Assembly: GCA_046483505.1 (NCBI GenBank) | Contig: JAWODB010000123.1 | Coordinates: 8,371 to 72,370 of the forward strand | Direction of reading: 5' to 3' | Source of the DNA: Phycisphaerae bacterium | GTDB taxonomy: Bacteria; Planctomycetota; Phycisphaerae; FEN-1346 | Length of the DNA stretch: 64,000 bases | Part shown: positions 45,442-64,000 of the stretch, piece by piece | Position numbering within the stretch: the first letter of the stretch is position 1 | Layout: each line of letters opens with the position of its first letter | The notes under the pieces: model-generated | What the model saw: the letters and a program-made list of their open reading frames with translations, nothing else | Told to the model about the DNA's origin: nothing | Databases searched by the model: none | Made by a program: the position numbers and the translations under genes

Positions 45442-45518
45442 AGCGTAGAGTGTGAGGAGTTGTATGCGTACACGCGTCGGTAGGTGAAGCGCTAACCTCT
45501 TGTGGCGGAGATGGGGCT

Positions 45519-46650: not shown

Positions 46651-46678
46651 CGGTAGTGTGGTCTGATGCACGGCCACA

Positions 46679-47085: not shown

Positions 47086-47210
47086 CAATGCCGTTGCACG
47101 CGGGAGAGCGCGGGCAGGCCGAGCCCAGCATAGCCGCACCCGTGTGACCGAACGCACCGCCTCTCCGTCACAGGCAGCGACGGTCTGTGGGCCCGAGGAA
47201 TGCCGTGCGG
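47086..47210. repeat. Structured ~117-bp repeat copy
   Basis: aatgccgttgcacgcgggagagcgcgggcaggccgagcccagcatagccgcacccgtgtgaccgaacgcaccgcctctccgtcacaggcagcgacggtctgtgggcccgaggaatgcc. Confidence 0.6.
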
Positions 47211-47222
47211 AGGAGACTTGCC

Positions 47223-47690: not shown

Positions 47691-47804
47691 GGCGGGGCCG
47701 CTCAGTGGCCGCCAGCAGACCAGCGTGGAAATCCGGCTGTTGCCCAATACGCCGAGGCCCGGCGGCTGCTCGCGCAGCTGAAAATGAATGCGCCAACGCC
47801 AGCC

Positions 47805-47880
47805 TGTCTGTCACACGCGGCGACGGTCTGTGGGCCCGTAGAAGGGCGTTGCACGCACGGCGTGCGATGGTAGCATAGCC
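47805..47880. repeat. Partial copy of the structured repeat
   Basis: ctgtctgtcacacgcggcgacggtctgtgggcccgtagaagggcgttgcacgcacggcgtgcgatggtagcatagcc. Confidence 0.55.
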
Positions 47881-47946
47881 TTGGCGAACCGCGAACCGGC
47901 AACGAGTGTTGTGAGAAGCGGCCGCGAGCCGTCGGAGGTTGATGCG

Positions 47947-48729
47947 ATGGACGCGCCGGACGATCCGCACGCAGGTGCCGAGGCTGCCTCCAACGCCCCT
48001 GCCGCCCCGAGCGCCGCCGCCTCCGCCGGCGCGCACGCCAAGCCCAAGCCGAAACCCTCTGCTCTCGTCCTCGCCGTCATCGTCTTCTTCATCATCATGA
48101 GCGCACGCATCTACGACCTGGGCCTGTGGCGGCCCGTTCTGCTCCTACACGGGCTCTTCTACGGTGGCCTGACAAGCGTGCCGATTGCCGCCCTGTGCCT
48201 CGTGCCGCAACTGCCCGTGCCGCGACGCTTCAAGTCCGGTGGCCTTCGGCGGGTGGTCGCGTTCACCCTTCCGGCCGTGGTTCTGGCGATGCTGATGGTC
48301 TGGCACGGGCTGCCGTCCACGGTACTCGGCAACATGCTGGGCAACGAGCACTTCGCCGCGCTTCCGCCGTCCGCCAGCGACGTCAAGGTGGAAGGGTGGA
48401 CGACCGGATTCTGCTACGAGGTGTGGCTGCGCTTCACGGCCTCGCCGGAAGACGTGGAGGCGTTCCTTGCAGCCTCCCCCGAGTTACGGGACGTCGAACC
48501 GGAACACTTCAACCGCGACCGGATGCTCTTGCTTCGACCTCGTGGCCAAGCGTCCGACGCGGACCTGGATGCTGACGGTCCGCATGCGTTTGCCCAGCGC
48601 AGCCCGTTCGCTCCGTCGTGGTACGCCCCGGAGATTCGCGAGAAAGGCAGGGTGTACTCTTCGCCGTCCGGATACAATGTGATCGTAAACGACGCGACGC
48701 ATACTGTTTTCATCTACAATGCCGATTAG
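47947..48729 (+). CDS. Hypothetical membrane protein (cassette-like ORF 4)
   Basis: First ATG at 47947 (the track start 47881 is TTG). Three transmembrane helices (ALVLAVIVFFIIMSARIY..., LLLHGLFYGGLTSVPIAALCLV, VVAFTLPAVVLAMLMVW), then a soluble C-terminal domain. Confidence 0.45.
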   Translation: MDAPDDPHAGAEAASNAPAAPSAAASAGAHAKPKPKPSALVLAVIVFFIIMSARIYDLGLWRPVLLLHGLFYGGLTSVPIAALCLVPQLPVPRRFKSGGLRRVVAFTLPAVVLAMLMVWHGLPSTVLGNMLGNEHFAALPPSASDVKVEGWTTGFCYEVWLRFTASPEDVEAFLAASPELRDVEPEHFNRDRMLLLRPRGQASDADLDADGPHAFAQRSPFAPSWYAPEIREKGRVYSSPSGYNVIVNDATHTVFIYNAD

Positions 48730-48810: not shown

Positions 48811-49015
48811 ATGCCGTGTCACGCGGGAGAGCGTGGGCAGGTTGAGCCCAGCATAGCCGAACCCGTATGACTGACCGACCAGCCCCTCTGTCACACGCGG
48901 CGACGGTCTGTGGGTTGCGGAATGCCATTGCACTCGGGGAGCGCGCACAGGCCGAGGCTAGCAGGCCCGAACCCATGTGAGGGAGCACGCACCACCTGTC
49001 TGTGACACGAGGCGG
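48811..49015. repeat. About 1.7 copies of the structured repeat, terminal copy degenerate
   Basis: atgccgtgtcacgcgggagagcgtgggcaggttgagcccagcatagccgaacccgtatgactgaccgaccagcccctctgtcacacgcggcgacggtctgtgggttgcggaatgccattgcac... Confidence 0.6.
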
Positions 49016-49641
49016 TCCGGCCGGCACCACGAGCCCTCCTGCGGCTCGAACTGCCGCAGGTACGCGCGGTTGTCCCGGGCCCAGCCGCGGACCTGCATCT
49101 CGACCGAGTACCCGTCCACGCCGTAGGTGTGGGCGTCCTTGATGGCCATGCTGCCGTGGGCGCTGGAGGCCCCGAGCAGGCTCATCGCCACCGGGATGCC
49201 GTCGAGGGGCACGGCGAGTTTCAGGCCCGCGCCGCTCGTGACGCTGAACCCGTACGTCGGGAACGAGGCCCACGGGGCGCTCGGCCAGTCCGTCGGCTTC
49301 TCCGCCTCGGCCGGGAACTTCCAGTGGTGCGGCGTGTCGGCCCGGTCGCCGATGCCGTGGGAGTGGAGGTAGAACTCCCGGTACGCCTCGGGCTGGAGTC
49401 GCACGAGCATCTGCTCCAAAGGAAGGAACCCTCGCTGCTCGTACACCTCGACCTGCTTCTCGACCGGCGTCTGGACGAAGTCCGTCGCGACCCGGTCCGC
49501 CAGGCCCTTCTCCAGCCACCGCCACTCGGGCGTCTCGGAGGTCATCTGGAAGTTGAACACCGCCACGTTCGTGGCGGCGGAGACAGCGGGCACCGCCACC
49601 AGAAGAATCCCGCATGCGATGAATCGTGAAATAACCCTCAT
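48958..49641 (-). CDS. Secreted hypothetical protein with a CsgG/LpoB-like N-terminal module (last gene of the minus-strand operon)
   Basis: Signal peptide MRVISRFIACGILLVAVPAVSA, then ATNVAVFNFQMTSETPEWRWLEKGLADRVATDFVQ. The first ~165 bp are ~90% identical at DNA level to the 5' end of the gene starting at 54111. The 3' end runs into the repeat, so the true stop is uncertain. Confidence 0.5.
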   Translation of the reverse strand: MRVISRFIACGILLVAVPAVSAATNVAVFNFQMTSETPEWRWLEKGLADRVATDFVQTPVEKQVEVYEQRGFLPLEQMLVRLQPEAYREFYLHSHGIGDRADTPHHWKFPAEAEKPTDWPSAPWASFPTYGFSVTSGAGLKLAVPLDGIPVAMSLLGASSAHGSMAIKDAHTYGVDGYSVEMQVRGWARDNRAYLRQFEPQEGSWCRPDRLVSQTGGACSLTWVRAC

Positions 49642-49671
49642 GAGATCCTGCCGGTCCGGACTGGAGCACCT

Positions 49672-52600
49672 TCATTCGATGGTAAACGTCACCGGCTCGC
49701 ATTCGACGCGAAACGTGTCCGACGGGAACTCGGCCGTAGCCGTGCACGTCCCCTTGAACCCCTGTGGAATCTTCCAGCCGTCACCCATGTCGTCCCATTG
49801 TGTGTCAAATGTCCAGGTACGGTGATCCGATTGCCGAGTGATAACAATGCGAACGGGATCGTAATCCTTGTGGGCCTCGTACGTGTGGAAGCGTTGGACG
49901 TACACCCCGCGCCCCCGACAATCGCGAAGGCGGATGTCGAAAGACAGCGCGCCGTCCTTCTGCTTTACGCGTACCGTCCCGCGGAGAGGGGTGCCGATGG
50001 GGAAGGCGGTCTCCGTCCCTTCCTGGAGGTCCACCGTGACACCGGGGGTGAAGTTCGTGAACCGGGGGTGCATTTCGACGTTCGGGGATCTGGAATCCGG
50101 CCGGGCGGAAACGTACTCACGGTAGTGGTGAACCGTATAACGGCCCGCCGGAACGGTCACCGGTTCTTCCCCGCCGTTTACGCTGATGACGGAACCCCGG
50201 CCACGTAAGACCAACCGCCAAAAGGGGTGGTTCAGATGAAGGCGAGCCAGCGGTCCCTGGTAAGGCTCTGCCGTTACACGCCGCCCCTCGTCGACCACGC
50301 GCACGTTCCACCATCGTCCATCCGCCTGAATCGGCTGGCCGTAGTGGCCCCGGGAGGCTCGTACAGGGTCTTTCCCACGGGTGTAGATATAGACGTAGTC
50401 GCCCTCGATACGGTCGTCCCCGTAGACCGACACCACGCGCGGTTCATCCGTGACGCGAAGCGTGCGGTTGGCATCGACGAAGCGCACCCAGTATACCCGG
50501 TCACCGAATTGGCAGCGTCCCTCGGCGGCGGTCCCCGCGCAGTATCCGAGATAGGGCTCTTCCCCATCCGTCGAGTAGGTTAAGTTAAACCAGGCCTGAA
50601 TCTGCCGACCCGCAAGAGAAAGGGAGACACCATACTCCTCGAACCGGTACTGGTATTTTTCCTTGGCCGGAATGTGCTGGATAGAACTCCGGGGCACAAC
50701 AGGAGCGCTATTGAAATCGCCCCGCCCCGTCGTATCGATGCGCACCACGTCGAAGTGGGGCGCATCCGGTTCCTTCGAGTCGAACGCCAATGCAACCGTG
50801 GTCTCTCCTTTTTGAACCTTCGCCACGACGGCGTGCGGGTTGACCGTGCCGTCGCCGGGAACCGGTTCTCGGAAGTGCTCGGCACCTTTCAAGTAAACAT
50901 ACGGCCGGTAAAGGGACTGTTGCGGCGGAATGGGCAGCCACTTCAATTGGCCGACTGGGGAGGACCCCGCGGACCCGATCGGCTGCTTGGAAGGGTCCTG
51001 CTGCAGGAAACGGTTTCTTGGAGTACGATCCCTCCGCAACGCCTGTCTCACCTTGCCGTCTGCACCCGTCATCCTATAGCGTTGGGGCTCCCGGCTCTTC
51101 ACCAACGCCCTCCGATCTTTTCGCGCCCCATCGGTTGAATCAACGCACGCCTGGCGCAACGGGACCAGTGTCGGCCCCCAGGTCACGAACGGTCCGTAAC
51201 TGGAACGGGGCGATGTCTTGGGCGCCTCACCGACCCAGCCAATCAGATACCCCCGTCCCGGCGCATAAACAAACGTATGAGGACCGCTAGCGACGCTCGG
51301 CAGTGTCGCCCATCGGCGCCAGGTTTCCGATTCGGTAATGGTCAACAGCGTCATGAGGGAGCGGCTGTAAAGCCCTTTCCGAAGGAGAACAAGCGGAGAC
51401 TGAAGTTGAACAAGCAGCGCGGGCCCATTCGTGTCGCGCGCCGCAGTGACGCCGCACACAAATTCTTCCACCGCAGACGGGGGAAGGCTGAAGACGGTCT
51501 CCGACCTCGCTCCCCGTCCGTCGGCGCTGGGCACATGGCGGACGACATGATATTCATAGATCAAATTAGGCCATGTCGTCTTATATTTGTGTGCGCGCTC
51601 AGCCGCATAGGCTTCGATTCCACCACCCCCGGAGGGAAGCAGATCAACGCTCGTGACTTCTGCCCCCTGATGCGCGGGTTGAAGTTGCATGACCCGTTTC
51701 CACTGATAGCCGTGGCGGCTGGAATAAATGGCAATTCCCCCTTTCAGATCCGCCTTGGCCCACCAGAGCCGTCCCCGGCCGTCTTGCACTAAAGCGTGAT
51801 GGCCGGGCGTCGTTTCGTCAGTAATCTGAACCGGTGCGCTCCAGTGCACGAAGTCCCGCGACCAGGAGATGTAGGGAAGGCGGAGGTGGCGGGCATCCCG
51901 GTCCGAGAGAAAGGCCAACAGGAAACGCCCCGCTTCGTCGCGTATCAGACGGGGGGCGTACTCGCACCACCCGCTCGAGAGGGGAAGATCGAGTTTGCGC
52001 GGCGGCGAGAACGTCTCTTCGTCGGTACATACCGAACGCCACAGGTCTCCACGTTGGGACCAGATGACCCGGATCGCCTGTTCGTCGGCTTCCACGGCGG
52101 GGGGGCAATTCGAACGCTCATGCAGCCGCACGTCGTAGCCGAGGTAATCCGGGGCAACACCGGCCGTCTTCCACTTCTCCCATCCGCTTCCTTCCTTGTA
52201 CGGCAGCCTGCCCACCAACCGTGTTACTTCGCCCTCTTTCACGCGAACGGTGGTTTCCCAGTTCGTGCGAAGGGCTACCTGCTTGTCGGGCGTCGGCAGA
52301 TACACGCAAGCCCTTAGGCTGGGGCTTATACGCAATCCATGAGCGAACAATTGTGTTATAGAGGTCATCAACCCGGTCTCGGGCCATGGACCCTGATCCG
52401 CCGGTAGAAAACCGATCCGATGTTCGCCAGGCGGCAGAGGCCCAATGAGCCCGGGGAACCAGCGGGCAAAGATTCCATCCACGTGGACCATGAAGCGATG
52501 GGTATCCGCGCACCGCACGTCAATCGCCCCAGGCCGGGCGACACGCCGAAATGCGGGTTCCACCCGCACGCCGCGAACCACGACCGGCCCGCCCGTGGGT

Positions 52601-54111
52601 CCCTTGGCGACAAATCGGCAACACGCTCGCAGAATGCAGTGCCTGGGAAGGTCTTTCCAAAACACGCCATGCTCGCGCGCCGGGGCAAGCGCTGCACTCA
52701 CCGGAGGACAAATGCGAAACAGACACGAGGGATCACGCCCCGCCGGCGTGATTCCCACCTCCACCGTTGCGCCTGAACCCTCGGCCAAAGGGCAGAACCG
52801 AGCCGACTCGAACACATGCCCGTCGGGAGCCGCGAGAACCAACGGGATCTCCACCGACGTCGGAGCAAATTCCAGACGCTTATCCCGATTCCGGCGCTCC
52901 TCGCCGGCAATGCGTGTCGGCTCAGGAAACTCATAAACCCGAGCAGTGGCGTCCTCATCGAACGCCAAGAGCATCCGTTCACACCACCCCCACTCTCTGT
53001 TCACCAGAGTGTCCCGCCCGAACGCCTCGCCCGTAAGGGCTTGATGCAGGAGCACATTCCTCCTGCAAACACAGGGTCTACGGTAAGAGACGGGAGCGCG
53101 AGCAGGTGTACCGTAGTAGTCTTGCCACAAGCAGGGTCGCGAACGCTGTGCTACCTCTTTGTGGCGTCCAAGTTGACCGAGTAGTTCAAACGACTTGAAT
53201 TCAAACCAGTCCTCCGCTTCCATAAACCCATCTCGTCCCCAAGAGCCTCCTTCTTTGATCCTTGCATTCGGATACCGCCGGGCAAGAGCCTCATAGCGCC
53301 GAAGCAGGTCCTCGCCCGACGCCCCGCTCGCCTCGTACGTGTGGACGTACTCGACCATCGCGTCGCCCAGCCGCGGGTGGGCCGTGTCCAGGTAGACGAA
53401 CTTCTCCAGCATCCGACGCGCGTGTCCGTACCGGTGGAGAAAATAATACATCTTCCCCGTCCAGTACACCGCCTCCACGTACCCCGGGTCCTCGCGGGAG
53501 GCCTGGCGGAACTTCAGCCACCCTTCGGCATACCGGCCCTGGTCGTACAGGTCCATGCCCTCGTAAAGCGCCTTGGCCGCGGGGAGGCTGCGCGTCCAGA
53601 CGGGCAGGCGCTCCAGGATCGCCGCCGCCGGCTTCTTCGAGAACCACGCGAGCAACTCCGCCGACAGGCGACGCTGGAGGTCCAGCACCTCGGCGGCCTT
53701 GCCCTCCACTTCCTTTCGCGCCACCTCCTTGCGCGAATCCACCTCCACGATCTGGCCCGTCAGGTGGATGCCGCCGTCGGTGGTGACGCGGTACACGCCC
53801 GTGACGAGGTATTCGATCTTCAGGGCCTTCCGGACCTTCCCCATCCGGTCGGGGTCGGAGGTGGCCATCTCCGGCACCCACCGCATCTCGGCGGCGAGCA
53901 TCTGCATCCGGTCGCGCGCGACCACGTCCAGGTCGGCGTCCTGGACGAAGTCCGTCGCGATCCGGTCCGCCAGGCCTTTCTGGAGCCACCCCCATTCCGC
54001 CGTCTCGCTGGTCATCTGGAAGTTGAACACCGCCACGTTCGTGGCGGCGGAGGCCGGGCTTCCGGCCAGGACCACGACGGCCAGGACGGCAACAAGAGAT
54101 GAGGCTTTCAT
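49672..54111 (-). CDS. Giant (1479-aa) secreted protein: CsgG/LpoB-like N-terminal module, TPR region and long uncharacterised beta-rich body
   Basis: Signal peptide MKASSLVAVLAVVVLAGSPASA, then ATNVAVFNFQMTSETAEWGWLQKGLADRIATDFVQ...VVARDRMQMLAAE (CsgG/LpoB-like). TPR-like region YEGMDLYDQGRYAEGWLKFRQASREDPGYVEAVYWTGKMYY. High GC3 throughout. Confidence 0.65.
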   Translation of the reverse strand: MKASSLVAVLAVVVLAGSPASAATNVAVFNFQMTSETAEWGWLQKGLADRIATDFVQDADLDVVARDRMQMLAAEMRWVPEMATSDPDRMGKVRKALKIEYLVTGVYRVTTDGGIHLTGQIVEVDSRKEVARKEVEGKAAEVLDLQRRLSAELLAWFSKKPAAAILERLPVWTRSLPAAKALYEGMDLYDQGRYAEGWLKFRQASREDPGYVEAVYWTGKMYYFLHRYGHARRMLEKFVYLDTAHPRLGDAMVEYVHTYEASGASGEDLLRRYEALARRYPNARIKEGGSWGRDGFMEAEDWFEFKSFELLGQLGRHKEVAQRSRPCLWQDYYGTPARAPVSYRRPCVCRRNVLLHQALTGEAFGRDTLVNREWGWCERMLLAFDEDATARVYEFPEPTRIAGEERRNRDKRLEFAPTSVEIPLVLAAPDGHVFESARFCPLAEGSGATVEVGITPAGRDPSCLFRICPPVSAALAPAREHGVFWKDLPRHCILRACCRFVAKGPTGGPVVVRGVRVEPAFRRVARPGAIDVRCADTHRFMVHVDGIFARWFPGLIGPLPPGEHRIGFLPADQGPWPETGLMTSITQLFAHGLRISPSLRACVYLPTPDKQVALRTNWETTVRVKEGEVTRLVGRLPYKEGSGWEKWKTAGVAPDYLGYDVRLHERSNCPPAVEADEQAIRVIWSQRGDLWRSVCTDEETFSPPRKLDLPLSSGWCEYAPRLIRDEAGRFLLAFLSDRDARHLRLPYISWSRDFVHWSAPVQITDETTPGHHALVQDGRGRLWWAKADLKGGIAIYSSRHGYQWKRVMQLQPAHQGAEVTSVDLLPSGGGGIEAYAAERAHKYKTTWPNLIYEYHVVRHVPSADGRGARSETVFSLPPSAVEEFVCGVTAARDTNGPALLVQLQSPLVLLRKGLYSRSLMTLLTITESETWRRWATLPSVASGPHTFVYAPGRGYLIGWVGEAPKTSPRSSYGPFVTWGPTLVPLRQACVDSTDGARKDRRALVKSREPQRYRMTGADGKVRQALRRDRTPRNRFLQQDPSKQPIGSAGSSPVGQLKWLPIPPQQSLYRPYVYLKGAEHFREPVPGDGTVNPHAVVAKVQKGETTVALAFDSKEPDAPHFDVVRIDTTGRGDFNSAPVVPRSSIQHIPAKEKYQYRFEEYGVSLSLAGRQIQAWFNLTYSTDGEEPYLGYCAGTAAEGRCQFGDRVYWVRFVDANRTLRVTDEPRVVSVYGDDRIEGDYVYIYTRGKDPVRASRGHYGQPIQADGRWWNVRVVDEGRRVTAEPYQGPLARLHLNHPFWRLVLRGRGSVISVNGGEEPVTVPAGRYTVHHYREYVSARPDSRSPNVEMHPRFTNFTPGVTVDLQEGTETAFPIGTPLRGTVRVKQKDGALSFDIRLRDCRGRGVYVQRFHTYEAHKDYDPVRIVITRQSDHRTWTFDTQWDDMGDGWKIPQGFKGTCTATAEFPSDTFRVECEPVTFTIE

Positions 54112-54146
54112 ACGTCCCCCCAGGCGTTGACGGCTGAGTGCTGCGG

Positions 54147-55259
54147 CTACTTGCCGGACGGCTTCGCGGCCTCCTTCAGGGCCTTGAGCCGCTCGGCGGC
54201 CTCGCGGGCGGCGTCCGTGCCGGGGAACCGCTCGATGAGTTTCTCGTAGACGCGGCGGGCGGCATCGTGCTTGCCGGCCTTCTCGAACATCTTGCCCAAC
54301 TGCAGGTCGCTGTGGGCCCGGAGGCGGCTCTTCTCCTCATCGGTCATTGTTTCGTCGGGCGTCTCGGGCTCGGCCTCCTCTGCCGCCGCGGGAGACGCCC
54401 CTTCCTCCGTCGCACCAGGCCCGAGGCGCGGAATGCCGCTCTGTTTCTCCCCCGCGCGGGCCTCGCCGAGCAGTTTACGGACCGCCGCGGCCCGGTCGGA
54501 GTCCGGGCACCGCTGGAGGTACTTCTCCCACTCGATGGCCGCATGGGCCGGCTCCTTCAGCCGGTCGTGCGCCATGCCGCACCAGTAGTGGGCCTCCACG
54601 TAGTCGGGGTCCAGGTCCATCGTCCGCATGAACTGCATGATGGCGGCGTCCATGTTCCCGGCGTAATAGTGGCTGATGGCCTTGGCAAAGTGCAGGCTCG
54701 CCACGGGCGAGGCGTCGAGTTTGGCCGGATCGATCTCGGGCAGCGGCAGGGCCATGCCCTTGCCGAGGCCCCGCGCCAGGCCGATGGCCGTCTCCATCAG
54801 GTCCACCGGCCGGAACGCCGTCTGCCCGGCGGCCGCCACGCGCTCGGACGCGATGTCGATGGCCTGGAGGCCGGCGGTCAACTTGCCCTGCACGAGGAAC
54901 AGCCGCCCCGTGAGGACGGTGTCGGCCTCCAGGAGTTTGCCCGCCGCCAGGGCGTACTCTTGCCCCGTCAGGCCCTTCAGCGAGACGGCCTGTTCCGCCG
55001 TCAGGGCGAGCAGCCGCTGCCGTTCGACCACGGTGATGTGGTCCTGCTCGGCCAGGAGGACGGCCACCAGGTCGCCGAGGCCGGCCGCGGCGGGGTCGTA
55101 CTGCTCCTCTCGGGTCTCGTTCTCCAGGGGAACCGCGAAGACGGTGCGCCGGCTCTTCGCCGGCGCCGTCGCCTCCGCCGCGGAAGGCGCGGGCGCGGGC
55201 GCCGCGGCCGCGAGAAGGACGAGTGGCAGGATCCGTACGAGGGTCGTGATCGGTCTCAT
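54147..55259 (-). CDS. Secreted TPR-repeat protein with a CsgG/LpoB-like N-terminal module
   Basis: Signal peptide MRPITTLVRILPLVLLAAAAPAPA. RTVFAVPLENETREE...LGDLVAVLLAEQDHITVVERQRLLALTAEQ, followed by TPRs (AISHYYAGNMDAAIMQFMRTMDLDPDYVEAHYWCGMAH). The ATG overlaps the upstream stop (ATGA). Confidence 0.65.
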   Translation of the reverse strand: MRPITTLVRILPLVLLAAAAPAPAPSAAEATAPAKSRRTVFAVPLENETREEQYDPAAAGLGDLVAVLLAEQDHITVVERQRLLALTAEQAVSLKGLTGQEYALAAGKLLEADTVLTGRLFLVQGKLTAGLQAIDIASERVAAAGQTAFRPVDLMETAIGLARGLGKGMALPLPEIDPAKLDASPVASLHFAKAISHYYAGNMDAAIMQFMRTMDLDPDYVEAHYWCGMAHDRLKEPAHAAIEWEKYLQRCPDSDRAAAVRKLLGEARAGEKQSGIPRLGPGATEEGASPAAAEEAEPETPDETMTDEEKSRLRAHSDLQLGKMFEKAGKHDAARRVYEKLIERFPGTDAAREAAERLKALKEAAKPSGK

Positions 55260-56422
55260 TCCTCACCCCCTTTCGCGCCCGGCGGCGCGTAGCCGACGAG
55301 CCGCCGGCCGACCGCCACGCCGAGCACGTGCCCGGCCTTCTGGAGGGCCGTCTTGCCGGCGGTGGCTTCCGAGAGGTCGACCGCCCGGCGGGTGGCGCGG
55401 TCCGCCACCAGGATGTCGCCCGTGTGCCGGTCGATGAGGTTGATCTCGGCCCGGCCCGTACAGGTCACCAGGTCGCCGGTACGGAGGGCGAATTCGCTGA
55501 ACGCCTCGCCTACGACCACCACGTCCGCCCGGCGGAGGGCGTCGGGCCACGGGGCGTCGGCGTTCTTCATCCGCCGCTTCGCCCAATCGGCCAGATCGTT
55601 CTGGCCGGCGTCGACCACCTTGAACCCGCAGGCCACGAGGATGCGCTTGATCTCGGTCTCGGCCGCCGGGTCGATGACCACCACCCGCGTCAGGTGGACC
55701 TCGGGAATCACGACCGCCACCGTCGGCCGGGGCTTGTCGCCGAGGGCCTTGCGGATCGCGGCCACGGGGTCCGGCCGCGGTTCGGCGTCCGGCAGGAGAC
55801 CGGGGCCCTGCTCGCGGATCAACTCGGCCACCTGTTCGGACATCTCGAAGATCGCCTCCGACATCTCCTTCGTCGGCTCGGCCTTGGTGATGGTGCCCTT
55901 GACCTTGCCGGTCTCGACGCCCACGACCTTCGTCACGAACATCAGGTGTTTGCCCATCGTGAAGGTCTTGCCCATGACCATGAGGCGTGCGCCGAGGAGT
56001 TTGCCGACCTCGACGGCCTTCTCGTGGTCCGTCAGGCCGCGGAGTTTGAGTTTCTGCTCCTCCAGGATCCGGTCGAGTTTGGCCCGTTCGACGAGGTCGA
56101 AGGCCTCCTCGACGCTGAGGCGGACGGTCAGGAGGTCGGCGATCTGCCGGCCGAGGTCCCGCTCGCCGGTCGTTCCGGTCTCGTAAGCGAGGATGGCGAT
56201 GGTTGGCTTGGCCTTCCCTTTCGCCTCCGCCGCGGCTTCCGGCTTGGCTTCCGCCGCGGCTTCGGGCTTGACCCCGGCTGCGGCTTCCGGCTTGACCTCG
56301 GCCGCGGCTTCCGGCTTGGCCTCGGCCTTGCCGGCCTCCGCGGCGTGGGACCGGTCCGTCGCGGCCAGGCTCGGTACCATCGTTGCCAGCGCGAGCAGCG
56401 TTACGGCCAATGACCGTCTCAT
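55256..56422 (-). CDS. Secreted protein with a KPEAAAE tandem-repeat linker, a CsgG/LpoB-like module and a C-terminal alpha/beta domain
   Basis: Signal peptide MRRSLAVTLLALATMVPSLAA. AEAKPEAAAEVKPEAAAGVKPEAAAEAKPEAAAEAKGK encoded by 24-nt tandem repeats at 56215-56340. TIAILAYETGTTGERDLGRQIADLLTVRLS...LVERAKLDRILEEQKL. ATGA overlaps at both ends. Confidence 0.65.
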   Translation of the reverse strand: MRRSLAVTLLALATMVPSLAATDRSHAAEAGKAEAKPEAAAEVKPEAAAGVKPEAAAEAKPEAAAEAKGKAKPTIAILAYETGTTGERDLGRQIADLLTVRLSVEEAFDLVERAKLDRILEEQKLKLRGLTDHEKAVEVGKLLGARLMVMGKTFTMGKHLMFVTKVVGVETGKVKGTITKAEPTKEMSEAIFEMSEQVAELIREQGPGLLPDAEPRPDPVAAIRKALGDKPRPTVAVVIPEVHLTRVVVIDPAAETEIKRILVACGFKVVDAGQNDLADWAKRRMKNADAPWPDALRRADVVVVGEAFSEFALRTGDLVTCTGRAEINLIDRHTGDILVADRATRRAVDLSEATAGKTALQKAGHVLGVAVGRRLVGYAPPGAKGGEE

Positions 56423-57507
56423 GGCACGCCTCCTTCCACACGCGTTTCGATCGTGCCTTCCCGTATCACTCCCGGCCGCGGCGGCTTCTGCCGCCGTGCG
56501 ACCCAGAGCAGCAGTTCGGCCAAAACGGCCCGTCCGACGGGATCTTCCCTCGGCCGGCCGAGGCGCGGCACCGCCGCCGCCACGACCGCCCCGTCGCCCA
56601 GGACGCGGGCCGCGACAAGCAGGCACCCCGGGCGTGCGGGACCCGCGGGCGCGGCCTCCGCCGCCGGCGCCGTCCACGCCAACCGTATCACGGGAACATC
56701 TGCACGCAAGCCAAACTCCCACGGACCGGACCCCAGATCGCCCGGCCTGAGCACCTGCCCGAAATCCCGGCCCAGCCGCACGGACTCCCCCAGCGGCGCG
56801 TCGAGGGCCACGGCGCGCAGCCCCCACCGTCGCCACGCCGGCGGCGGATTCAGCACCAGGACGGTCAGCCCGTCGCGGACCTGCGCCTCGAGACGGGTCC
56901 AGTCGCCCCGCGCCAGCGTGGCCCCGTCGCCCAGGGCCAGGACGACCAGGTCCCCGTCGAAGGCCATCCGCTGGATGGCCGTCTCGAACGGCCCCGCCGC
57001 AAGCCCTTCGGCCGTCAGCGCCGCCTGTACCCGGCCGGAGGGATCGAAGGCTGCCGGACTCAAGGCCGCCACGCGCCGCCGCGCCGGCGCCAGCAGCGAC
57101 GCCGGCCAGACGTGGAGCGGCGCGACCGTCCACCGGCCGCCGGCGCGGCACACGAGTCGGCACGGCGTGCGATGACGGACCGCCGGCAGACCCAGCCGCA
57201 CGCGCGCCGTCGCGTCCGGGCCGGGACGCACCGTCCCGCGGGCCAGCACCAGCCGCTCGTGGACGAGCCACCATGGGACCGGTTCTCCTCCCGCCCCAAC
57301 CCGGACCTTCACGTCGCTTCCGCCGAAGACGTGGACCGGCGGCCGGGCCGGCGCCGGTCGGTCGGCGGCCGCGACCCGGACGGCCGGACCGCGGGTCCGT
57401 CTCGTGTGGGGCGGCCCCACCGCGGTCGTCTCGGCCCGTACCAGGGTCGCGGCCACGCCGACCAGCATCCAGGCCGCCGTGCGGCCTGCGCTCCGTCGCA
57501 TCCGCAT
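56419..57507 (-). CDS. Secreted hypothetical protein
   Basis: 362 aa starting MRMRRSAGRTAAWMLVGVAATLVRAETTAV (signal-like). Ala/Arg/Pro-rich but a consistent frame. Translationally coupled to the downstream gene (ATGA at 56419-56422). Confidence 0.45.
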   Translation of the reverse strand: MRMRRSAGRTAAWMLVGVAATLVRAETTAVGPPHTRRTRGPAVRVAAADRPAPARPPVHVFGGSDVKVRVGAGGEPVPWWLVHERLVLARGTVRPGPDATARVRLGLPAVRHRTPCRLVCRAGGRWTVAPLHVWPASLLAPARRRVAALSPAAFDPSGRVQAALTAEGLAAGPFETAIQRMAFDGDLVVLALGDGATLARGDWTRLEAQVRDGLTVLVLNPPPAWRRWGLRAVALDAPLGESVRLGRDFGQVLRPGDLGSGPWEFGLRADVPVIRLAWTAPAAEAAPAGPARPGCLLVAARVLGDGAVVAAAVPRLGRPREDPVGRAVLAELLLWVARRQKPPRPGVIREGTIETRVEGGVP

Positions 57508-57543
57508 CGCCCGTTCCCCCCGCGGCGGGCGCGGGCGGAGGCG

Positions 57544-58464
57544 TCATCCCAGCACCCCTCCCAGCGGAAGGGCCTGACACACCACCTGCACCCGGCATCC
57601 ATTGATCCGAAACTGTCCCACCTCGACGGGCCCCTGCCCGACGGCCACGCGGCCCTGCACGCCGGCGGCCCCGGCCTCCTCGCCGCCCACCGTGACGTGG
57701 ACGACGGCTTCGCCGCCGCGGGTGGCGATTTCGCACGCCACCGGCCGATGGTGGAGGCTGGCTACACGGTCCAGCGCCAGGGGGCTCTGGATGCCGGCCG
57801 GGACGAGGACGTTGAACGTGCCGTGCACCTCCCCGTCGCAGCCGACCAGCCGGCACCGCACGAGCAGCGGCGACGCCTCGGCCTCGCCGCCCGCCGTCGC
57901 CGACACGTAGCCGAACCGCCCGCCGCCGTTCCCGAGGAGAATCCACGGCACCTCTTGCGGTGGCGTCCCCGCCACTTGACGCCACAGTGTCCGGAACGAG
58001 GCCAGTTCCTCCTCCGTCAGGCTCGGCAGGGTGACCGCGCGCTCGAGGCGCGCGAGGCGCTGCTCGATCCGCTGCTGCGTCCGGACGGCCGTGGCGGCCA
58101 TCCACGCGCCGGCGGCGAGCATGACGACCGCCGCGGCCGCCAGGCCCCAGGCCATCCACGGCCGGCCCCGGTTCCTCCGGCCTGTTGCGGCACGCTCGTC
58201 GCCGCGCGGTGCGGCGGGCGCCGACGGGCGGGACACCTCCGCCACGACCTCGGCCATCGAGCGCGCCAGCGCCGCCTCGGCAGCCTCGTAGCCGAGGACG
58301 GTCCGGGCGCCGCGCTGAACCCGGAGCATCTCGGCCAGGAGGGCGCGCGCGGCCTGGTCGCGCGCCAGGCGCGCGAGCAGCGCCGCCCGCTCCCGCTCGT
58401 CCGTGTCGCCGCACACCAGGGCGTGCAGGCGCCGCTCCAAATCGAGGCGCTCGTCGGTTTCCAT
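57544..58464 (-). CDS. Anti-sigma factor (single transmembrane helix, periplasmic C-terminal domain)
   Basis: ATG 58464 overlaps the sigma-factor stop (TGATG). METDERLDLERRLHALVCGDTDERERAALLARLARDQ... is a typical ECF anti-sigma N-terminus. Transmembrane helix WMAWGLAAAAVVMLAAGAWMAATAV. Confidence 0.6.
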   Translation of the reverse strand: METDERLDLERRLHALVCGDTDERERAALLARLARDQAARALLAEMLRVQRGARTVLGYEAAEAALARSMAEVVAEVSRPSAPAAPRGDERAATGRRNRGRPWMAWGLAAAAVVMLAAGAWMAATAVRTQQRIEQRLARLERAVTLPSLTEEELASFRTLWRQVAGTPPQEVPWILLGNGGGRFGYVSATAGGEAEASPLLVRCRLVGCDGEVHGTFNVLVPAGIQSPLALDRVASLHHRPVACEIATRGGEAVVHVTVGGEEAGAAGVQGRVAVGQGPVEVGQFRINGCRVQVVCQALPLGGVLG

Positions 58465-59147
58465 CAGTCCGCCTCCGGAAAGTGCGCCCGCAGGGCACCG
58501 GCCACGATGCGGCGGGCCCGGCTGACGCGGCTGGCGACCGTGCCCACCGGCACCTCGAGCAACTCGGCCGCCTGTTCGTACGTGTACCCGTCCAGCACGG
58601 TGACGACGAAGGCGGCCCGCGTCGGCGCGTCCAGATCCTGAATGGCCGCGGCCACGGCCCGGGCCTCCTCGGACCGTTCGAGCCCCTCGTCCGGCCCGGG
58701 GCGGCTGTCGAGGAGAGCCCCGACCGTCCATGCGTCAAGTGGCTCGGCCCGGCGGACCGACCCGCGGCGGAACCAGTCGCGGACGCAGTTAACCAGGATC
58801 CGGTGGAGCCACGTGGTGGGGCGTGCCTGGCCGTCGAAACGGTCCCAGCGCCGCAGCGCCTGGCAGAACGTCTGCTGGGTCAGGTCGGCGGCCGTGTCGG
58901 CGTCGCACGTCAGGCGCAGCGCCGTCCGGAACAGGCGCGGGTACCATCGTTCGATCTCGGCCGGCGTCGCGGGATCCACGAAGGGTCCTGTCGCAGGGGT
59001 CCGGGTGTCCGATGCCGTCGCCGTCACTCTATCAAACGCACGAGGGGAAAAACATTTCTCGTCTTTTCGAGGGGGCGGCACACCGCGACCCGTTCGGCAC
59101 CCCACGTTTTCGGCGAAGTCTCTCTCGGCTCGTGCGTTTGGTACCAT
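58464..59147 (-). CDS. ECF (sigma-70 family, group 4) sigma factor
   Basis: Region 2 (IERWYPRLFRTALRLTCDADTAADLTQQTFCQALRRWDRF) and region 4 HTH (AAFVVTVLDGYTYEQAAELLEVPVGTVASRVSRAR). The start may lie downstream of the ATG at 59147. Confidence 0.75.
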   Translation of the reverse strand: MVPNARAERDFAENVGCRTGRGVPPPRKDEKCFSPRAFDRVTATASDTRTPATGPFVDPATPAEIERWYPRLFRTALRLTCDADTAADLTQQTFCQALRRWDRFDGQARPTTWLHRILVNCVRDWFRRGSVRRAEPLDAWTVGALLDSRPGPDEGLERSEEARAVAAAIQDLDAPTRAAFVVTVLDGYTYEQAAELLEVPVGTVASRVSRARRIVAGALRAHFPEAD

Positions 59148-59325
59148 GGCGACCGTTTCGAATCCGTCAGCCCGGTCACATCCGCCACATGACAGAGGCG
59201 GCGTTCCGAGGGCGTATCGCGCTTGCGTTTGTGACGGACGCGCGCTATTGTGTATCTGTATCCGCTCTGAAGATGGACAGGCCGGAGCTCAGCACGGGAA
59301 GAGATACAGACCGAGCGGAGGGCGA

Positions 59326-60504
59326 ATGATGAGCCGGAAACCGCCGATTGCCCTCGTGAGGCCGGTGCTGATCGTCGCCCTCGGCATGAGCCTGCACCTT
59401 TGGCAGGAGCCGCTGCATGCCGGGGGTCAGACGCAGCCGCCGCCTGCACCGTCGCAGCCGACCGCGGGGCGCCCTCCAGCCCCGGGTGACGCGGTCGACT
59501 ACAGCAAGCCCATCCCCTGCGTGCGAACGATGCTGGGGCACGACGACACGGTGTATCGCGTCGCTTTCTCGCCCAACGGGATGCAGGCGGCAAGCACCGG
59601 GCGGGATAATACGATCCGTCTCTGGGATCTGGAGACGGGCCGGGAACTGCGATGCATCGGCACCTACGGCGCTGCCGTGGGGGCCCTTCTGTTTGCGGGC
59701 GACGGGAAGCGCGTGATCACGGGCGCAACGGATTCCACCATCCGCATGTGGGACATGGACACCGGCCGGGAGATGTGGCGGATCGACGGGCCGCCCATGC
59801 AGCACGCCCACTGCCTGGCGTTTCTGACGGACGCCGTTCTGGCCAGTGGCTGGTGCGATGGCGTGATCCGCCTGTTCAGCCTGTCGTCGCGCCGGGAAGT
59901 CGCGCGGCTGGAGAAACACGGGCCCACCTGCATTGAGACGATGACGGCTTCACCGGACCGCGCGATGCTGGCCACGGCGGGGCGGGACCGGAAAGTCTGC
60001 CTCTGGGATTCGGCGTCGCGCAGGTGGCTGGCCGACACCGGCGATCTGTACGCCAAGCCCGCGATGGTCGGGTTTCTGGACAGCGAGCGCCTCTTGCTCA
60101 TGACGGATGATCACACGATCTCCGTCTGGGAGTGGAAGGTCGGCCGCGTCACGCGGTGGGCCCAGGAGCCGATGCTCTCGGGGTTGGCCCTGGCGCCGCG
60201 AGGACGACAGTTCGTCGCGTACAGCCTCAACGACCTCGAGCAGTGGGACGCGTCGGCCGGAAAGTGTATGCGGACGGCCCGTGCCGGCCCTGGCCAACTC
60301 CATTGTGCCGAGATATCGCCCGACGGCCGCTACCTCCTTACCGCGGAGGGTGGGCGACGGTTCCTACAAGGGGGGAGGACGTTCAGGACATTTGACTTCA
60401 CGTCCACCGACGCGAACTTCGTGCGTCTGTGGGACTTGCAGGCACCGAAGGTGCCGCAAACGCCTTACAGGTACCTGCCGACACAGGCACCGGATCTGCC
60501 ATGA
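59326..60504 (+). CDS. Secreted WD40-repeat beta-propeller protein
   Basis: MMSRKPPIALVRPVLIVALGMSLHLW signal. WD40 repeats TMLGHDDTVYRVAFSPNGMQAASTGRDNTIRLWDLETGRELRCI... and ...TIRMWDMDTGREMWRI. Divergent from the ECF operon. Confidence 0.75.
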   Translation: MMSRKPPIALVRPVLIVALGMSLHLWQEPLHAGGQTQPPPAPSQPTAGRPPAPGDAVDYSKPIPCVRTMLGHDDTVYRVAFSPNGMQAASTGRDNTIRLWDLETGRELRCIGTYGAAVGALLFAGDGKRVITGATDSTIRMWDMDTGREMWRIDGPPMQHAHCLAFLTDAVLASGWCDGVIRLFSLSSRREVARLEKHGPTCIETMTASPDRAMLATAGRDRKVCLWDSASRRWLADTGDLYAKPAMVGFLDSERLLLMTDDHTISVWEWKVGRVTRWAQEPMLSGLALAPRGRQFVAYSLNDLEQWDASAGKCMRTARAGPGQLHCAEISPDGRYLLTAEGGRRFLQGGRTFRTFDFTSTDANFVRLWDLQAPKVPQTPYRYLPTQAPDLP

Positions 60505-63269
60505 CACGACACGTCCTCGTTGGGCTGGCCCTTCTTACCTGCGGCGCCACAGCGATGGCGGGCGCCGGGCCCCGGCCCACGTGCGGCCTCGTCCCCGACC
60601 GCGGCCTGGACTTGCACACGTCGCCGCTGGTGGCACTGTTGGAACTGCACCTGGCTCAATCGAAGCAGGTGGTGCTGGTGGAGCGGTCCCAGGTCGATCA
60701 GGTGATTGAGGAGCAGAAACTCCAGTTCATGTTTGCCCCCGAGGCCGTCCGCGAGCGCGCCGCCCTGGGTCAGTTGCTGAAGGCCGACTTGCTCGTGCTG
60801 ATGCGGGCCAACGATAAGCCTCAGCCGCACGTCCACGTCGTCATTTGCGAAACCCGGCAGGGTCTGCGGCTGTGCGCGCGGCCTGTGTCCCTGACGGACG
60901 ACCCCGAGGCCGACTGTGCCGCCGTGGCAGCCCTGGTGGACCAAGCCGTGGCGCTTCATACCAAGGGGATCAAGGACGTCGTGGCGGTGCCCCCCTTTGT
61001 GGACTGCAGCCTCACCTATCAGGCCGAGCACCTGAAGGCCGCTTACGCGAAACTGGTGGAGGACCTGGCGGTGTTACGGCCGGGTGTGCTGGCCGTCGAG
61101 TTGGCTGAGGCCAATGCCATTTCCCGGGAGATTGCGCTGAGCGCATCGGCGGACGTGCAGCGCCCGCTCCCCCTGTACGTGCTGGGCGAGTACCGGCAGG
61201 AGGGTGTCGCCGGGCAGGCCCGGCAGACGGTCAGCCTGAGGCTAATGCGCGGCCGAAAGCAACTGCACACGGCGAAGCGGGAGAACCTGTCGCCCCGGGA
61301 AGCGCCTCTCTTCATCCGTCAGGCCGCGACCGCCATGCTCGAGAAGTCGCTCGGCAAGGCGCCGCCGCCGGACCCGAAGACCGAGACGCGGCAACTGGTC
61401 GACCGCGGCACCGCCTTCCTTCGCATGGGCGACTGGTCCGAGGCCGCCGCCCTCCTGCAGGCCGCCATCCTCCTCGATGAGCGCCACCCCGAGTGGCATC
61501 GTCAGGCGGCCTTCGCCTTGCAGCGGATGGCACGCGACCTGCAGGCGCGCGACCGGTCCATCTTCACGAAGAACACGGAGCGGGCCATCGCGTGTTTCCG
61601 GGCGTCGCTCCGTCCCATCGAGACCTTCTTCCGGAACTCGGTGCTCACGCGCCAGCCGCACGAAATGACCGCCGAGGGCGGGCAGATCCAGGTACGGTGG
61701 GTGTGGGGAAACTGGCAGCGCCGACTGATCGCCGAAATGGGGGAACGCGCGCTCCGCGCCGCCGACCAACTGGATCGGGAATGCCTCGAGATGATGACCC
61801 GGGTCCTCCGGAGCAAAGCCGCCCGACAGGTCCAGGACACGACCCCCTTGTTTGCCGAGAGGATCTGTTTCCGGCCGCTGAACTACGGCATGCCCCTCGC
61901 CGAACGGGTCGAGGAATTGCAGAGACGCCTGGCGTTCCTCCGGCAGTTCGCGTACCTGGAAGACGCTGCGGTCTGTAAGCGGCTCGTCGACTACGTCGCA
62001 AGGTGGGGCGATCTGGCTCCGGACGACCCGGACTTCACGGCGTTCCTTGAGAAGGCCGAGACGATCAACAATGCCGCGATGCGCCAGGCCGTGCTCCACC
62101 ATCGCGAGGCCGCGGAGAAACAGGCGGCCTTGGACCAGGCCCGTTGCGCGACCCTGGCCGCGACGGCACCTGAGCGGCAGCGCGGCCGCCGGACGCGATC
62201 CTCCGTCCGGCTGGTCACCTTGGACGTGCGGTTGCACAACTCGCGGGGCGGCGATATCCCTGTACGATTCCCGATCTCCTACTGGCTCGCCATGCTCGAC
62301 GGCACGGATCTGATCTGCGGCGAGGCCCAGGTGTACGTCATGCGAGAGGCCGGACGCCTCGTTCCGCTGGGCCTGGTGCAGACGAAGGAACAAGTGTCCC
62401 CCGTCGTCGACGGGCGTCTGGCGTGGGTGGTATCCGGCTTTCCGCAGCCGGGGCTCTCTGCTCTGGATGCCAGCAGCGGCCATCTGGTCGGGCGGTTCAC
62501 GGAGGCGGATGGGCTGCCCGCCTGTCGGCGCGCCCACGTCGCACCGCTGGAGCCCGGGAAGGTCGTGGTGGCCGGCTACTTCGGCCGGTCCTTCTGCGGC
62601 ATCGCCGCCGTCGATCCTCGGGACGGCACGAAGTCCTTCAAGATCCTCTACGAGGCCCGCGACGCCTACGATGACATGAGCCTCGAGCATCAGAAGAGTC
62701 CGACCGTGGCCACCGAGATCGACTTCCTCCGCGTGTTGACCCGGTCTCCGTCTCCCGGGGCCACACCTGTGCGCAGGGCCGTCATCGGACGGTCCGCCGG
62801 GGCCCACCCCCTGCTGCTCGACCTGGATACGGCGTCGGTCCAGGTGCTGCCGTATCGCATGCTGGAACGCGACATTCTGGCCGTCCGCGACGGCGCGATC
62901 TACTGGACGAGCATCGGGCAAGAGGGCCTGTGCCTCCGTCGGGCCGCGCTGCCCGACATGCGGGAGGAGGTTCTGGCCAAGCGGCTGCCGGCCTCCGACG
63001 ACGGGGCCTTGCAGGACTGGCAGTCCCACGTCCCTGAGTGGCGAACCCAGCCTGACGGCGAGGAGGACGCCCGTCCCCCGGACGTGAGCGCAGCGTTCCT
63101 CAATGAGCACCACGGCGTTGGCGTGTTCCGGAGCGCCCGATACGGATGGGTGATGCCCACGCACGAGGGCCGGGTGTTTCGGGTGGTGCCGGAGGCTCCG
63201 GCCGCGGTTTCGGGGTTTGAGGCCGGGGCCGAGGACGGACCGCCGCGAACGGTCGGAGGTGCGCCATGA
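60501..63269 (+). CDS. Large (922-aa) secreted hypothetical protein with a CsgG/LpoB-like N-terminal module
   Basis: ATG overlaps the WD40 stop (ATGA). MTRHVLVGLALLTCGATAMAGAG signal. SPLVALLELHLAQSKQVVLVERSQVDQVIEEQKLQFM matches the CsgG/LpoB-type motif. Confidence 0.6.
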   Translation: MTRHVLVGLALLTCGATAMAGAGPRPTCGLVPDRGLDLHTSPLVALLELHLAQSKQVVLVERSQVDQVIEEQKLQFMFAPEAVRERAALGQLLKADLLVLMRANDKPQPHVHVVICETRQGLRLCARPVSLTDDPEADCAAVAALVDQAVALHTKGIKDVVAVPPFVDCSLTYQAEHLKAAYAKLVEDLAVLRPGVLAVELAEANAISREIALSASADVQRPLPLYVLGEYRQEGVAGQARQTVSLRLMRGRKQLHTAKRENLSPREAPLFIRQAATAMLEKSLGKAPPPDPKTETRQLVDRGTAFLRMGDWSEAAALLQAAILLDERHPEWHRQAAFALQRMARDLQARDRSIFTKNTERAIACFRASLRPIETFFRNSVLTRQPHEMTAEGGQIQVRWVWGNWQRRLIAEMGERALRAADQLDRECLEMMTRVLRSKAARQVQDTTPLFAERICFRPLNYGMPLAERVEELQRRLAFLRQFAYLEDAAVCKRLVDYVARWGDLAPDDPDFTAFLEKAETINNAAMRQAVLHHREAAEKQAALDQARCATLAATAPERQRGRRTRSSVRLVTLDVRLHNSRGGDIPVRFPISYWLAMLDGTDLICGEAQVYVMREAGRLVPLGLVQTKEQVSPVVDGRLAWVVSGFPQPGLSALDASSGHLVGRFTEADGLPACRRAHVAPLEPGKVVVAGYFGRSFCGIAAVDPRDGTKSFKILYEARDAYDDMSLEHQKSPTVATEIDFLRVLTRSPSPGATPVRRAVIGRSAGAHPLLLDLDTASVQVLPYRMLERDILAVRDGAIYWTSIGQEGLCLRRAALPDMREEVLAKRLPASDDGALQDWQSHVPEWRTQPDGEEDARPPDVSAAFLNEHHGVGVFRSARYGWVMPTHEGRVFRVVPEAPAAVSGFEAGAEDGPPRTVGGAP

Positions 63270-64000
63270 ACGCCCGCGGCCCAACACATTGGATGGCGGT
63301 CGTTCTTTTCGCCGCGCTTGCCGGCGGGACCGTCCTGGCGGCCGCCTCACCTTCGGAAAACAACCCGGAGGAACTCAACGAAGCCGGTCTGGCCGCCATT
63401 CGCCCCGGCCGCCTCGACGAGGCGGAGAAGATGTTCCTCCTGGCAATCGGCGCGGCCGAGGCGCAGAACCCGACAGGCCCGGACCTGCTGAGGTACCGGA
63501 CGAATCTGGGCGCGCTCTACTCCGTGCAGGGAAACAACCAGAAAGCCGAGCAGGCCCTCGAAAAGGCCATGGCGCTGCACGAGAAGCATCTCGCGCCGGG
63601 GCATCCCAACGTCCTCAACTGCCTGAGGAATCTGGGGAGAGTTTACCGCGCGCGGCGCCGGTTCGATGCGGCGGAGACGACGCTCAAACGTGTCCTGGCG
63701 GGCTGGGAGAAAGCCGGTGGCCCGGAGTATCCCGAGGTGGCCATCAGCCTGAGCGACCTCGGTACGCTTTATCGCTCCCTTGAGAAGTGCGACCAGGCAG
63801 CGTTGTGCCATCGGCGGGCCTTGGCCATCCGGGAGAAGGCACAGGCGCCCGAGGACGCGGGCACGGCGGGTGACCTGTACGGCTTGGCCGACTGCTACCT
63901 CAATCAGGACAAGAAGGCCGAGGCAGAACCGCTGTGCAGAAGGGCCCTGGCCATCATAGAGAAGGTGCGCGGGCGGGAACACATGGAGACGGCTTCGGTC
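63266..64000 (+). CDS. Secreted TPR-repeat protein (kinesin-light-chain-type TPR_12), 3'-truncated by window end
   Basis: ATG overlaps the upstream stop (ATGA). Signal peptide MNARGPTHWMAVVLFAALAGGTVLAAAS. Repeated EQALEKAMALHEKHLAPGHPNVLNCLRNLGRVY and AETTLKRVLAGWEKAGGPEYPEVAISLSDLGTLY units. Confidence 0.7.
   Translation, partial: MNARGPTHWMAVVLFAALAGGTVLAAASPSENNPEELNEAGLAAIRPGRLDEAEKMFLLAIGAAEAQNPTGPDLLRYRTNLGALYSVQGNNQKAEQALEKAMALHEKHLAPGHPNVLNCLRNLGRVYRARRRFDAAETTLKRVLAGWEKAGGPEYPEVAISLSDLGTLYRSLEKCDQAALCHRRALAIREKAQAPEDAGTAGDLYGLADCYLNQDKKAEAEPLCRRALAIIEKVRGREHMETASV

Follow-up and report, generated by a model that had tools for sequence, protein, structure and literature searches.

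What kind of envelope system is encoded by a gene cluster that is headed by a sigma factor and whose best conserved product bears the name of a curli or holdfast pore? The cluster in question occupies the right-hand end of a 64,000-nucleotide stretch of DNA (the window; GC content ~70%) from a Phycisphaerae bacterium, positions 8,371 to 72,370 of the forward strand of contig JAWODB010000123.1 (assembly GCA_046483505.1). One of its two divergent operons encodes an extracytoplasmic function (ECF) sigma factor, a putative anti-sigma factor and the Sec-exported proteins X, C (p388), tpr370, p1479 and p227; the other encodes a WD40 protein, p922 and a protein with tetratricopeptide repeats (TPR). 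The answer that we regard as probable, though by no means assured, is that these genes form a self-contained envelope cluster specific to bacteria of the Planctomycetes–Verrucomicrobia–Chlamydiae (PVC) group, in which an autoregulated ECF switch drives a periplasmic scaffold held together by a shared docking module. The products would thus form a scaffold or adaptor assembly, and neither an enzyme pathway nor a pore of the CsgG type. Three lines of evidence bear on this answer: the fold of the shared module, the conservation of the gene order across two phyla, and a promoter motif common to the sigma genes of the related loci.

The shared module and its fold

The sequence-only reading of this DNA had proposed that five of the proteins begin, after a signal peptide, with the same module of ~60 aa, of the fold type found in CsgG, LpoB and the N-domain of TolB. 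The fold type is supported by Pfam, by an AlphaFold model and by Foldseek, while the extent and the count had to be revised: the module is a whole domain of ~110–140 aa, and there are four full modules and one fragment, in p227, which comprises the first ~40 residues of the domain. The Pfam family CsgG (PF03783; profile length 210, gathering cutoff 20.8 bits) matches p388 with 43.0 bits at aa 86–152 (profile positions 32–97) and tpr370 with 23.5 bits (positions 8–98), stays below threshold in p922 (15 bits) and gives no match in p1479 or p227. A family hidden Markov model (HMM) built from the orthologues of C recognizes the module in tpr370 (aa 18–189, 2e-36), p1479 (aa 18–162, 7e-17) and p922 (aa 65–175, 1e-13). 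No further module copies were found in the 64 kb. Nor is the module an artefact of its position next to the signal peptide: the AlphaFold model of C, built from a 46-sequence alignment, has a predicted local distance difference test (pLDDT) score of 81.8 and yields significant fold matches.

In this model, C consists of a signal peptide, a disordered (KPEAAAE)n linker, an alpha/beta domain (aa 74–205) and a second alpha/beta domain (aa 234–376), in that order. The linker is encoded by a tandem 12/24-nt repeat at window positions 56200–56355 and is TolA-like in composition; most orthologues have a short linker or none. The first domain is predicted to be a compact unit of 130 aa with three strands of ~10 residues each and without inserted hairpins, and an hhalign comparison of it with the second domain showed no relationship. 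Searches of the PDB sequences with the profiles of X and C returned no match. On the model, the module is the compact alpha/beta core that CsgG has in common with the C-domain of LpoB and the N-domain of TolB.

In the public databases, C is treated as a member of the CsgG family. An NCBI entry from a Phycisphaerae metagenome-assembled genome (MAG; Planctomycetota) that is 100% identical to p388 is named ‘CsgG/HfaB family protein’, and in NCBI and JGI such proteins are called CsgG/HfaB or CsgG. Taken literally, the name would make C an outer-membrane secretion channel and the cluster an exporter of amyloid, holdfast or a similar surface polymer. The Pfam score is indeed above the gathering threshold in both p388 and tpr370, and CsgG chains rank top among the Foldseek matches in the PDB (4uv2, E 3e-7). 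CsgG has two transmembrane beta-hairpins that form its 36-strand barrel. In the case of C, however, the Pfam match covers about a third of the profile, the template modelling (TM) score to CsgG is 0.33–0.40 with a root-mean-square deviation (rmsd) of 9–10 Å, and the compact modelled domain leaves no room for membrane hairpins. In p388, tpr370 and p1479 the signal peptide is not followed by a lipobox cysteine; of the 46 orthologues of C, 44 have a signal-like N-terminus without a genuine lipobox, and the cysteines present in the 46 sit within the hydrophobic core, before the AxA cleavage site. No csgA/B/E/F- or hfaA/D-like genes were recognized by Pfam and NCBIfam among the ten genes, nor in the related loci inspected, and the same module also heads soluble proteins of 900–2400 aa. 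Three of the four defining features of the secretion channel (lipobox, hairpins and partner genes) therefore fail, and we consider a pore function very improbable. With the lipobox absent and no space for the hairpins, it would be a mistake to equate the label ‘CsgG/HfaB family protein’ with a secretion channel.

The best single-domain structural match of C is the C-domain of LpoB (4q6z_A; E 4.9e-6, target-normalized TM 0.67, rmsd 3.1 Å over 114 columns), followed at the fold level by GNA1162, the TolB N-domain (4r40, 3iax), PelC and HpaA; for LpoB, TolB, GNA1162 and PelC, the E-values range from 5e-6 to 1e-4. LpoB binds and activates PBP1B through the UB2H domain of the latter, and in TolB, which is encoded in the tol-pal operon, an alpha/beta domain at the N-terminus precedes a PD40 beta-propeller. 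As in these periplasmic proteins, the module directly follows an export signal, and its association with TPR partners recalls the pairs TolB–CpoB and PelC–PelB. The cluster might thus encode analogues of LpoB, CpoB and TolB, that is, periplasmic adaptors by which PVC bacteria, not known to have the gammaproteobacterial Lpo proteins, would control their peptidoglycan synthases or the tethering of the outer membrane. The best NCBIfam matches of tpr370 and p1479, to YbgF/CpoB (1.8e-13 and 2e-4, below cutoff), and the long disordered linker ahead of the globular domain of C, as in LpoB, would fit such a role. Yet the YbgF matches are generic TPR matches, the linker is not conserved among the orthologues, and the sequence models of the LpoB families remain below threshold (PF13036, 19.8 versus 22.3; TIGR02722, 18.3 versus 110.55). 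TolB is matched by its N-domain fold, although no TolB_N or PD40 match was obtained in Pfam and no tol or pal genes are adjacent. Neither the cluster nor the related loci inspected contain genes for penicillin-binding proteins (PBP), tol or pal, and no pel neighbours are present. Furthermore, unlike LpoB, TolB, GNA1162 and PelC, the proteins of this cluster lack a lipid anchor, carry the module as the N-terminal head of very large proteins and, in C, combine it with an unrelated second domain. An LpoB-like role is, in our estimate, rather improbable.

A further resemblance is to the H-ring protein FlgT of Vibrio, which contains tandem alpha/beta domains of the same fold class. FlgT and FlgO/FlgP build periplasmic rings, and a faint FlgO match in Pfam was seen in one orthologue of C. 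The alignment of C with FlgT and the LPHT ring (3w1e, 8z5n) extends over 315–341 columns, but the global superposition is poor (TM 0.18–0.26, rmsd 17–24 Å), there is no sequence similarity and no flagellar genes lie nearby. Still, the solved relatives of the module either form rings (CsgG, PelC and FlgT) or dock on envelope machines (LpoB and TolB), and for this reason we propose that the exported proteins of the cluster may assemble through it.

Conservation of the gene order and its putative sigma switch

Related loci were collected by context look-ups and by a scan of one genome per species (80 loci) and were analysed with iterated HMMs; synteny counts are given per 70 loci, those with enough upstream (or downstream) DNA. 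Homologues of C number more than 200, all of them in MAGs of the Planctomycetota type, and come in a form of ~350 aa and a TPR-fused form of ~650 aa. Within the set, C stands out as the best conserved protein, with 40–60% identity across phyla. The loci belong to Planctomycetota (Phycisphaerae, Sedimentisphaerales, Tepidisphaerales, Pirellulales and Thermoguttaceae) and Verrucomicrobiota (Limisphaerales, Chthoniobacter, Terrimicrobiaceae and Opitutales). Several public labels look wrong: L011, L014 and L028 are labelled Anaerolineales, yet their clusters are 60–77% identical to the one described here, and L087 is labelled Proteobacteria and carries the verrucomicrobial type. A contig labelled Akkermansia muciniphila (L085, CAMAUZ010000066.1) has a GC content of 67% and is evidently mislabelled, and a link of the cluster to the Akkermansia literature was rejected for that reason.

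Synteny in relatives had been chosen beforehand as the observation on which the idea of a cluster would stand or fall. Sigma, anti-sigma, X and C follow one another in this order on a single strand in 56 of the 70 loci, and X is nearly always the immediate upstream neighbour of C (Table 1). At least one module protein of 600 aa or more follows on the same strand in 53 loci; usually there are one to three such proteins, often two or three. A divergent module protein adjoins the sigma promoter in eight. Seven loci retain X, C and the large module proteins without the sigma and anti-sigma genes, which argues that the exported proteins constitute a unit in their own right. In ten loci C and the module–TPR protein are a single open reading frame (ORF); in one of these, L005, the C-terminal half of the fusion is 72% identical to tpr370. 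This repeated fusion of C to a module–TPR partner is one of the grounds for proposing a scaffold. Orthologues of p1479 lie downstream of C in L005, L011–L014, L018 and L023, and right after it in the closest clade. Full-length orthologues of p922 are found directly downstream of C in L047 (37% identity over 836 aa), L045, L052, L041, L070, L090 and L003, and this links the divergent plus-strand operon with the core of the cluster.

The sequence of X is less informative. The one Pfam hint for it is DUF4350, which 2 of 16 relatives match weakly. An exhaustive phmmer search returned 80 representatives, all stand-alone proteins of ~330–370 aa and functionally uninformative, and a word-indexed search with the X profile returned five proteins only.

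The sigma factor contains regions 2 and 4 only (PF04542, 1.6e-15; PF08281, 6e-13) and scores 82.3 bits against TIGR02937 (cutoff 42.9). Its start had been placed at 59147 and is corrected here to the GTG at 58979, because the GC content at third codon positions (GC3) is 0.57 in 58980–59147 as opposed to 0.90 within the gene, because the gene call on a sister contig (L001) likewise gives 171 aa, and because the predicted promoter falls within the supposed N-terminal extension. The anti-sigma factor overlaps the sigma gene, has a transmembrane segment and matches NF052375 weakly (7e-6, 26 bits versus a cutoff of 100); a Pfam scan gave no anti-sigma domain, and its C-terminal segment had no Pfam match. 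Its orthologues adjoin the sigma gene in more than 60 loci, and its periplasmic domain of ~150 aa is conserved along with the cluster. This arrangement resembles autoregulated operons in which an ECF sigma factor is paired with an anti-sigma factor of class I, such as rpoE-rseABC and sigW-rsiW: the sigma factor has the sigma2 and sigma4 domains only, a putative single-pass anti-sigma factor is translationally coupled to it, genes for envelope proteins appear to be co-transcribed downstream, and a predicted ECF-style promoter with an AAA-rich -35 element and a CGT-containing -10 element precedes the sigma gene. [quoted passage not shown]

The parallel with rpoE suggests another reading, in which X and C would be periplasmic co-regulators of the anti-sigma factor, as RseB is of RseA, and the large module proteins would feed the pathway by sensing or by binding ligands as receptors, so that the whole would be mainly a signalling device and less a structural assembly. 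The order of the first four genes mirrors rpoE-rseA-rseB-rseC, the periplasmic domain of the anti-sigma factor is conserved along with the genes, and the bodies of the large proteins vary in the way expected of receptors. Against this reading stand the seven loci that have the exported proteins without the sigma and anti-sigma genes, the fusion of C to a module–TPR protein rather than to the anti-sigma factor, and the finding that none of these proteins is as well conserved as C. We regard it as unlikely.

The sequence-only reading had also proposed a search for an ECF promoter motif, and a conserved one does lie upstream of the sigma gene, with a second copy facing the divergent operon. A Gibbs search over 64 sigma-upstream regions converged on one motif, ncgAAAatat...cGcGCgTCTtAtt, or GAAAT-N15-CGTYTRA in summary form, with GAAAT, GAATT or CAAAAA as the -35 element and (G)CGTCTaA or GCATCc as the -10 element. 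Its information content is 16.8 bits, compared with 9.5–10.1 in shuffled sets. Measured from the conserved sigma core, it lies at a median of 118 nt upstream, and within 85–165 nt in 61 of the 64 loci; the standard deviation of its position is 27 nt versus 78–98 in shuffled sets. A position weight matrix (PWM) built without the window's own site ranks two sites, P1 and P2, highest in the 64 kb, and these stand back-to-back in the 346-nt divergent gap and have the 12-mer CTCGTGCGTTTG in common. P1, ~40 nt upstream of the sigma start, scores 23.2/29.3 bits (shuffle maximum 19.5/19.7) and P2 scores 15.2/20.8. No promoter of the sigma-70 type was found in 48.5–64 kb. The sigma gene thus appears to be preceded by a putative autoregulatory ECF-type promoter, conserved at a fixed distance in the 64 loci. 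Similar divergent second sites are present in L057, L058 and L041, and in L058 a divergent module protein of 1436 aa follows. Three strong matches to the motif in L057, at 6748 (-) with 25.2 bits, at 7350 (+) with 24.0 and at 14566 (-) with 20.7, hint that the local regulon there is larger. In the window, the sole other match near the shuffle maximum is GGAGAAACCATGACACGCTCGTTCGTTCGATTGG at 16839–16872 (+; 12.9/18.7 bits), which probably lies inside a minus-strand ORF.

Gene layout, variable bodies and neighbouring sequence

All ten ORFs listed earlier for this region are present at their coordinates apart from the sigma start (Table 1). The junctions had been described as overlapping and are so: TGATG joins the sigma and anti-sigma genes with an overlap of 1 nt, and ATGA joins X to C, C to tpr370, the WD40 gene to p922 and p922 to the TPR gene. 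The remaining intergenic gaps are 30–36 nt long. The TPR gene that is cut by the window end encodes 795 aa on the sister contig, where another TPR gene follows. The description of a dense set of exported, paralogous TPR, WD40 and large proteins headed by an ECF sigma/anti-sigma pair is supported.

Table 1. Coordinates of the cluster's genes, predicted promoter sites and repeat in the window
Feature	Position	Strand	Basis
ECF sigma factor, 171 aa, GTG start	58464..58979	-	Sigma70_r2, Sigma70_r4_2, TIGR02937; GC3; L001 gene call
Putative anti-sigma factor, single-pass membrane protein, 306 aa	57544..58464	-	TGATG overlap; weak NF052375; hydrophobic segment WMAWGLAAAAVVMLAAGAWMA
Protein X, exported, 362 aa	56419..57507	-	Directly upstream of C in 80/86 loci
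Protein C (p388), 388 aa	55256..56422	-	Pfam CsgG; AlphaFold; Foldseek
tpr370, module + TPR protein, 370 aa	54147..55259	-	Pfam CsgG; TPR families; family HMM
p1479, module + TPR + large beta-rich body, 1479 aa	49672..54111	-	Family HMM
p227, signal peptide + first ~40 aa of module, then unrelated sequence, 227 aa	48958..49641	-	Homology of aa 1-57
Exported WD40 beta-propeller protein, 392 aa	59326..60504	+	Pfam WD40, 7e-31
p922, module (x1-2) + TPR + beta-rich body, 922 aa	60501..63269	+	Family HMM
TPR_12/TPR_10 protein, cut by window end	63266..64000	+	Pfam
112-nt repeat, 5' ends of p1479 and p227	53941..54052 and 49471-49582		Repeat search, 91% identity
P1, predicted ECF-type promoter of the sigma operon, CGAGAAATGTTTTTCCCCTCGTGCGTTTGATAGA; -35 GAAAT, -10 CGTTTGA	59028..59061	-	Best PWM match in 64 kb
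P2, second ECF-type promoter-like site, facing the WD40 operon, GGCGAAGTCTCTCTCGGCTCGTGCGTTTGGTACC	59112..59145	+	Second-best PWM match in 64 kb

The bodies of the large proteins had been described as TPR, WD40 and unannotatable regions, and Pfam indeed recognizes repeat and interaction domains only, namely TPR, Sel1, HEAT, EF-hand and WD40. Segments of p1479, p922 and the tail of p227 gave nothing besides TPR, and five large orthologues gave repeat domains only. In p1479 the composition changes along the gene: GC3 is 0.92 in the first 200 codons and 0.59–0.76 in the body (49672–53214, residues ~300–1479), while the neighbouring genes are at 0.82–0.92 and the orthologues in relatives match the GC3 of their own neighbours. 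Such a composition suggests that the body has recently been replaced by recombination downstream of a conserved head domain. In p227, homology is confined to aa 1–57 and the 5' end is a DNA copy of that of p1479 (Table 1), so the protein is a truncated or chimeric paralogue; the rest of the gene has a coding-like GC3 of 0.94 and no homologue in the related loci.

Beyond p227 the window contains six interspersed direct repeats on the plus strand (45215–45360, 45329–45474, 46538–46683, 47113–47258, 47756–47901 and 48836–48981) with a core of ~85 nt that contains GTCACACGCGGCGACGG and is absent elsewhere in the 64 kb (6 matches versus 0.2 expected). The repeats flank three small plus-strand ORFs, and the last of them directly adjoins p227 at its 3' end. 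When tested as attC-like elements or known RNAs, they gave no Rfam match and no significant hairpin; they may be similar to repetitive extragenic palindromes or miniature inverted-repeat transposable elements, or may mark cassette boundaries. The neighbouring ORFs at 41170–44784 (1204 aa), 45519–46484 (321 aa) and 47881–48729 (282 aa) have no Pfam match.

A candidate periplasmic scaffold of PVC bacteria

How might the cluster work as a switch-driven scaffold? A periplasmic cue would inactivate the anti-sigma factor, and the freed sigma factor would then transcribe its own operon, in positive autoregulation, as well as the divergent one. Once exported, the products would come together in the periplasm by way of the shared module, with C and its partner X as a core that stays constant and with bodies of the TPR, WD40 and beta-rich kinds as interaction surfaces that vary.

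Several observations weigh against this picture. Half of the core pair X–C is effectively invisible, because the model of X, from a 5-sequence alignment, has a pLDDT of 37.6 and is unusable. Most of the invariant charged residues of C are in its second domain (E241, D251, E255, E257, E306, S309, R324, E326, R346, D349 and K357); they could mark a site for ligand binding or catalysis, at odds with a pure scaffold. The large protein of one relative contains an FGE-sulfatase domain. None of the 85 related loci contains a homologue of the WD40 protein, and the long-TPR gene has no counterpart there either; judging by these comparisons, the two genes are lineage-specific and not conserved with the cluster. 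The assignment of P1 and P2 as promoters is computational, and P2, taken alone, is just marginally over the shuffle maximum of the whole window. Finally, the idea that the module mediates homotypic or heterotypic assembly is argued by analogy with its solved relatives and should be taken as a proposal.

A bolder version of the scaffold reading, which we offer tentatively and hold to be doubtful, takes the near-identical 5' ends of the paralogues and the atypical body of p1479 as signs that recombination exchanges the bodies behind a head that stays constant. The cluster would then encode a PVC-specific periplasmic machine with a core of X and C, possibly a ring, into which interchangeable giant TPR and beta-propeller proteins are plugged via a common N-terminal docking domain, all under the control of a dedicated ECF sigma factor. 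If this is true, such a machine could underlie envelope features that are peculiar to the PVC phyla.

The cluster was thought to match no named envelope system, and none was found in the literature, including the paper on ECF re-classification. It is undescribed, no publication on it having been found, and is a phylum-spanning variant of an ECF-controlled envelope operon. One immediate consequence is the correction of the automatic annotation ‘CsgG/HfaB family protein’, which misleadingly implies a pore for curli or holdfast. The envelopes of PVC bacteria are unusual, as is their division, and understanding so far extends to few of their envelope systems. A cluster that is conserved in two phyla and has its own regulator, a recognizable promoter and a fold of the ring-forming or docking class offers a handle on the biology of these envelopes, and the pairing of a sigma factor and its promoter with a small set of genes makes that handle a testable one.

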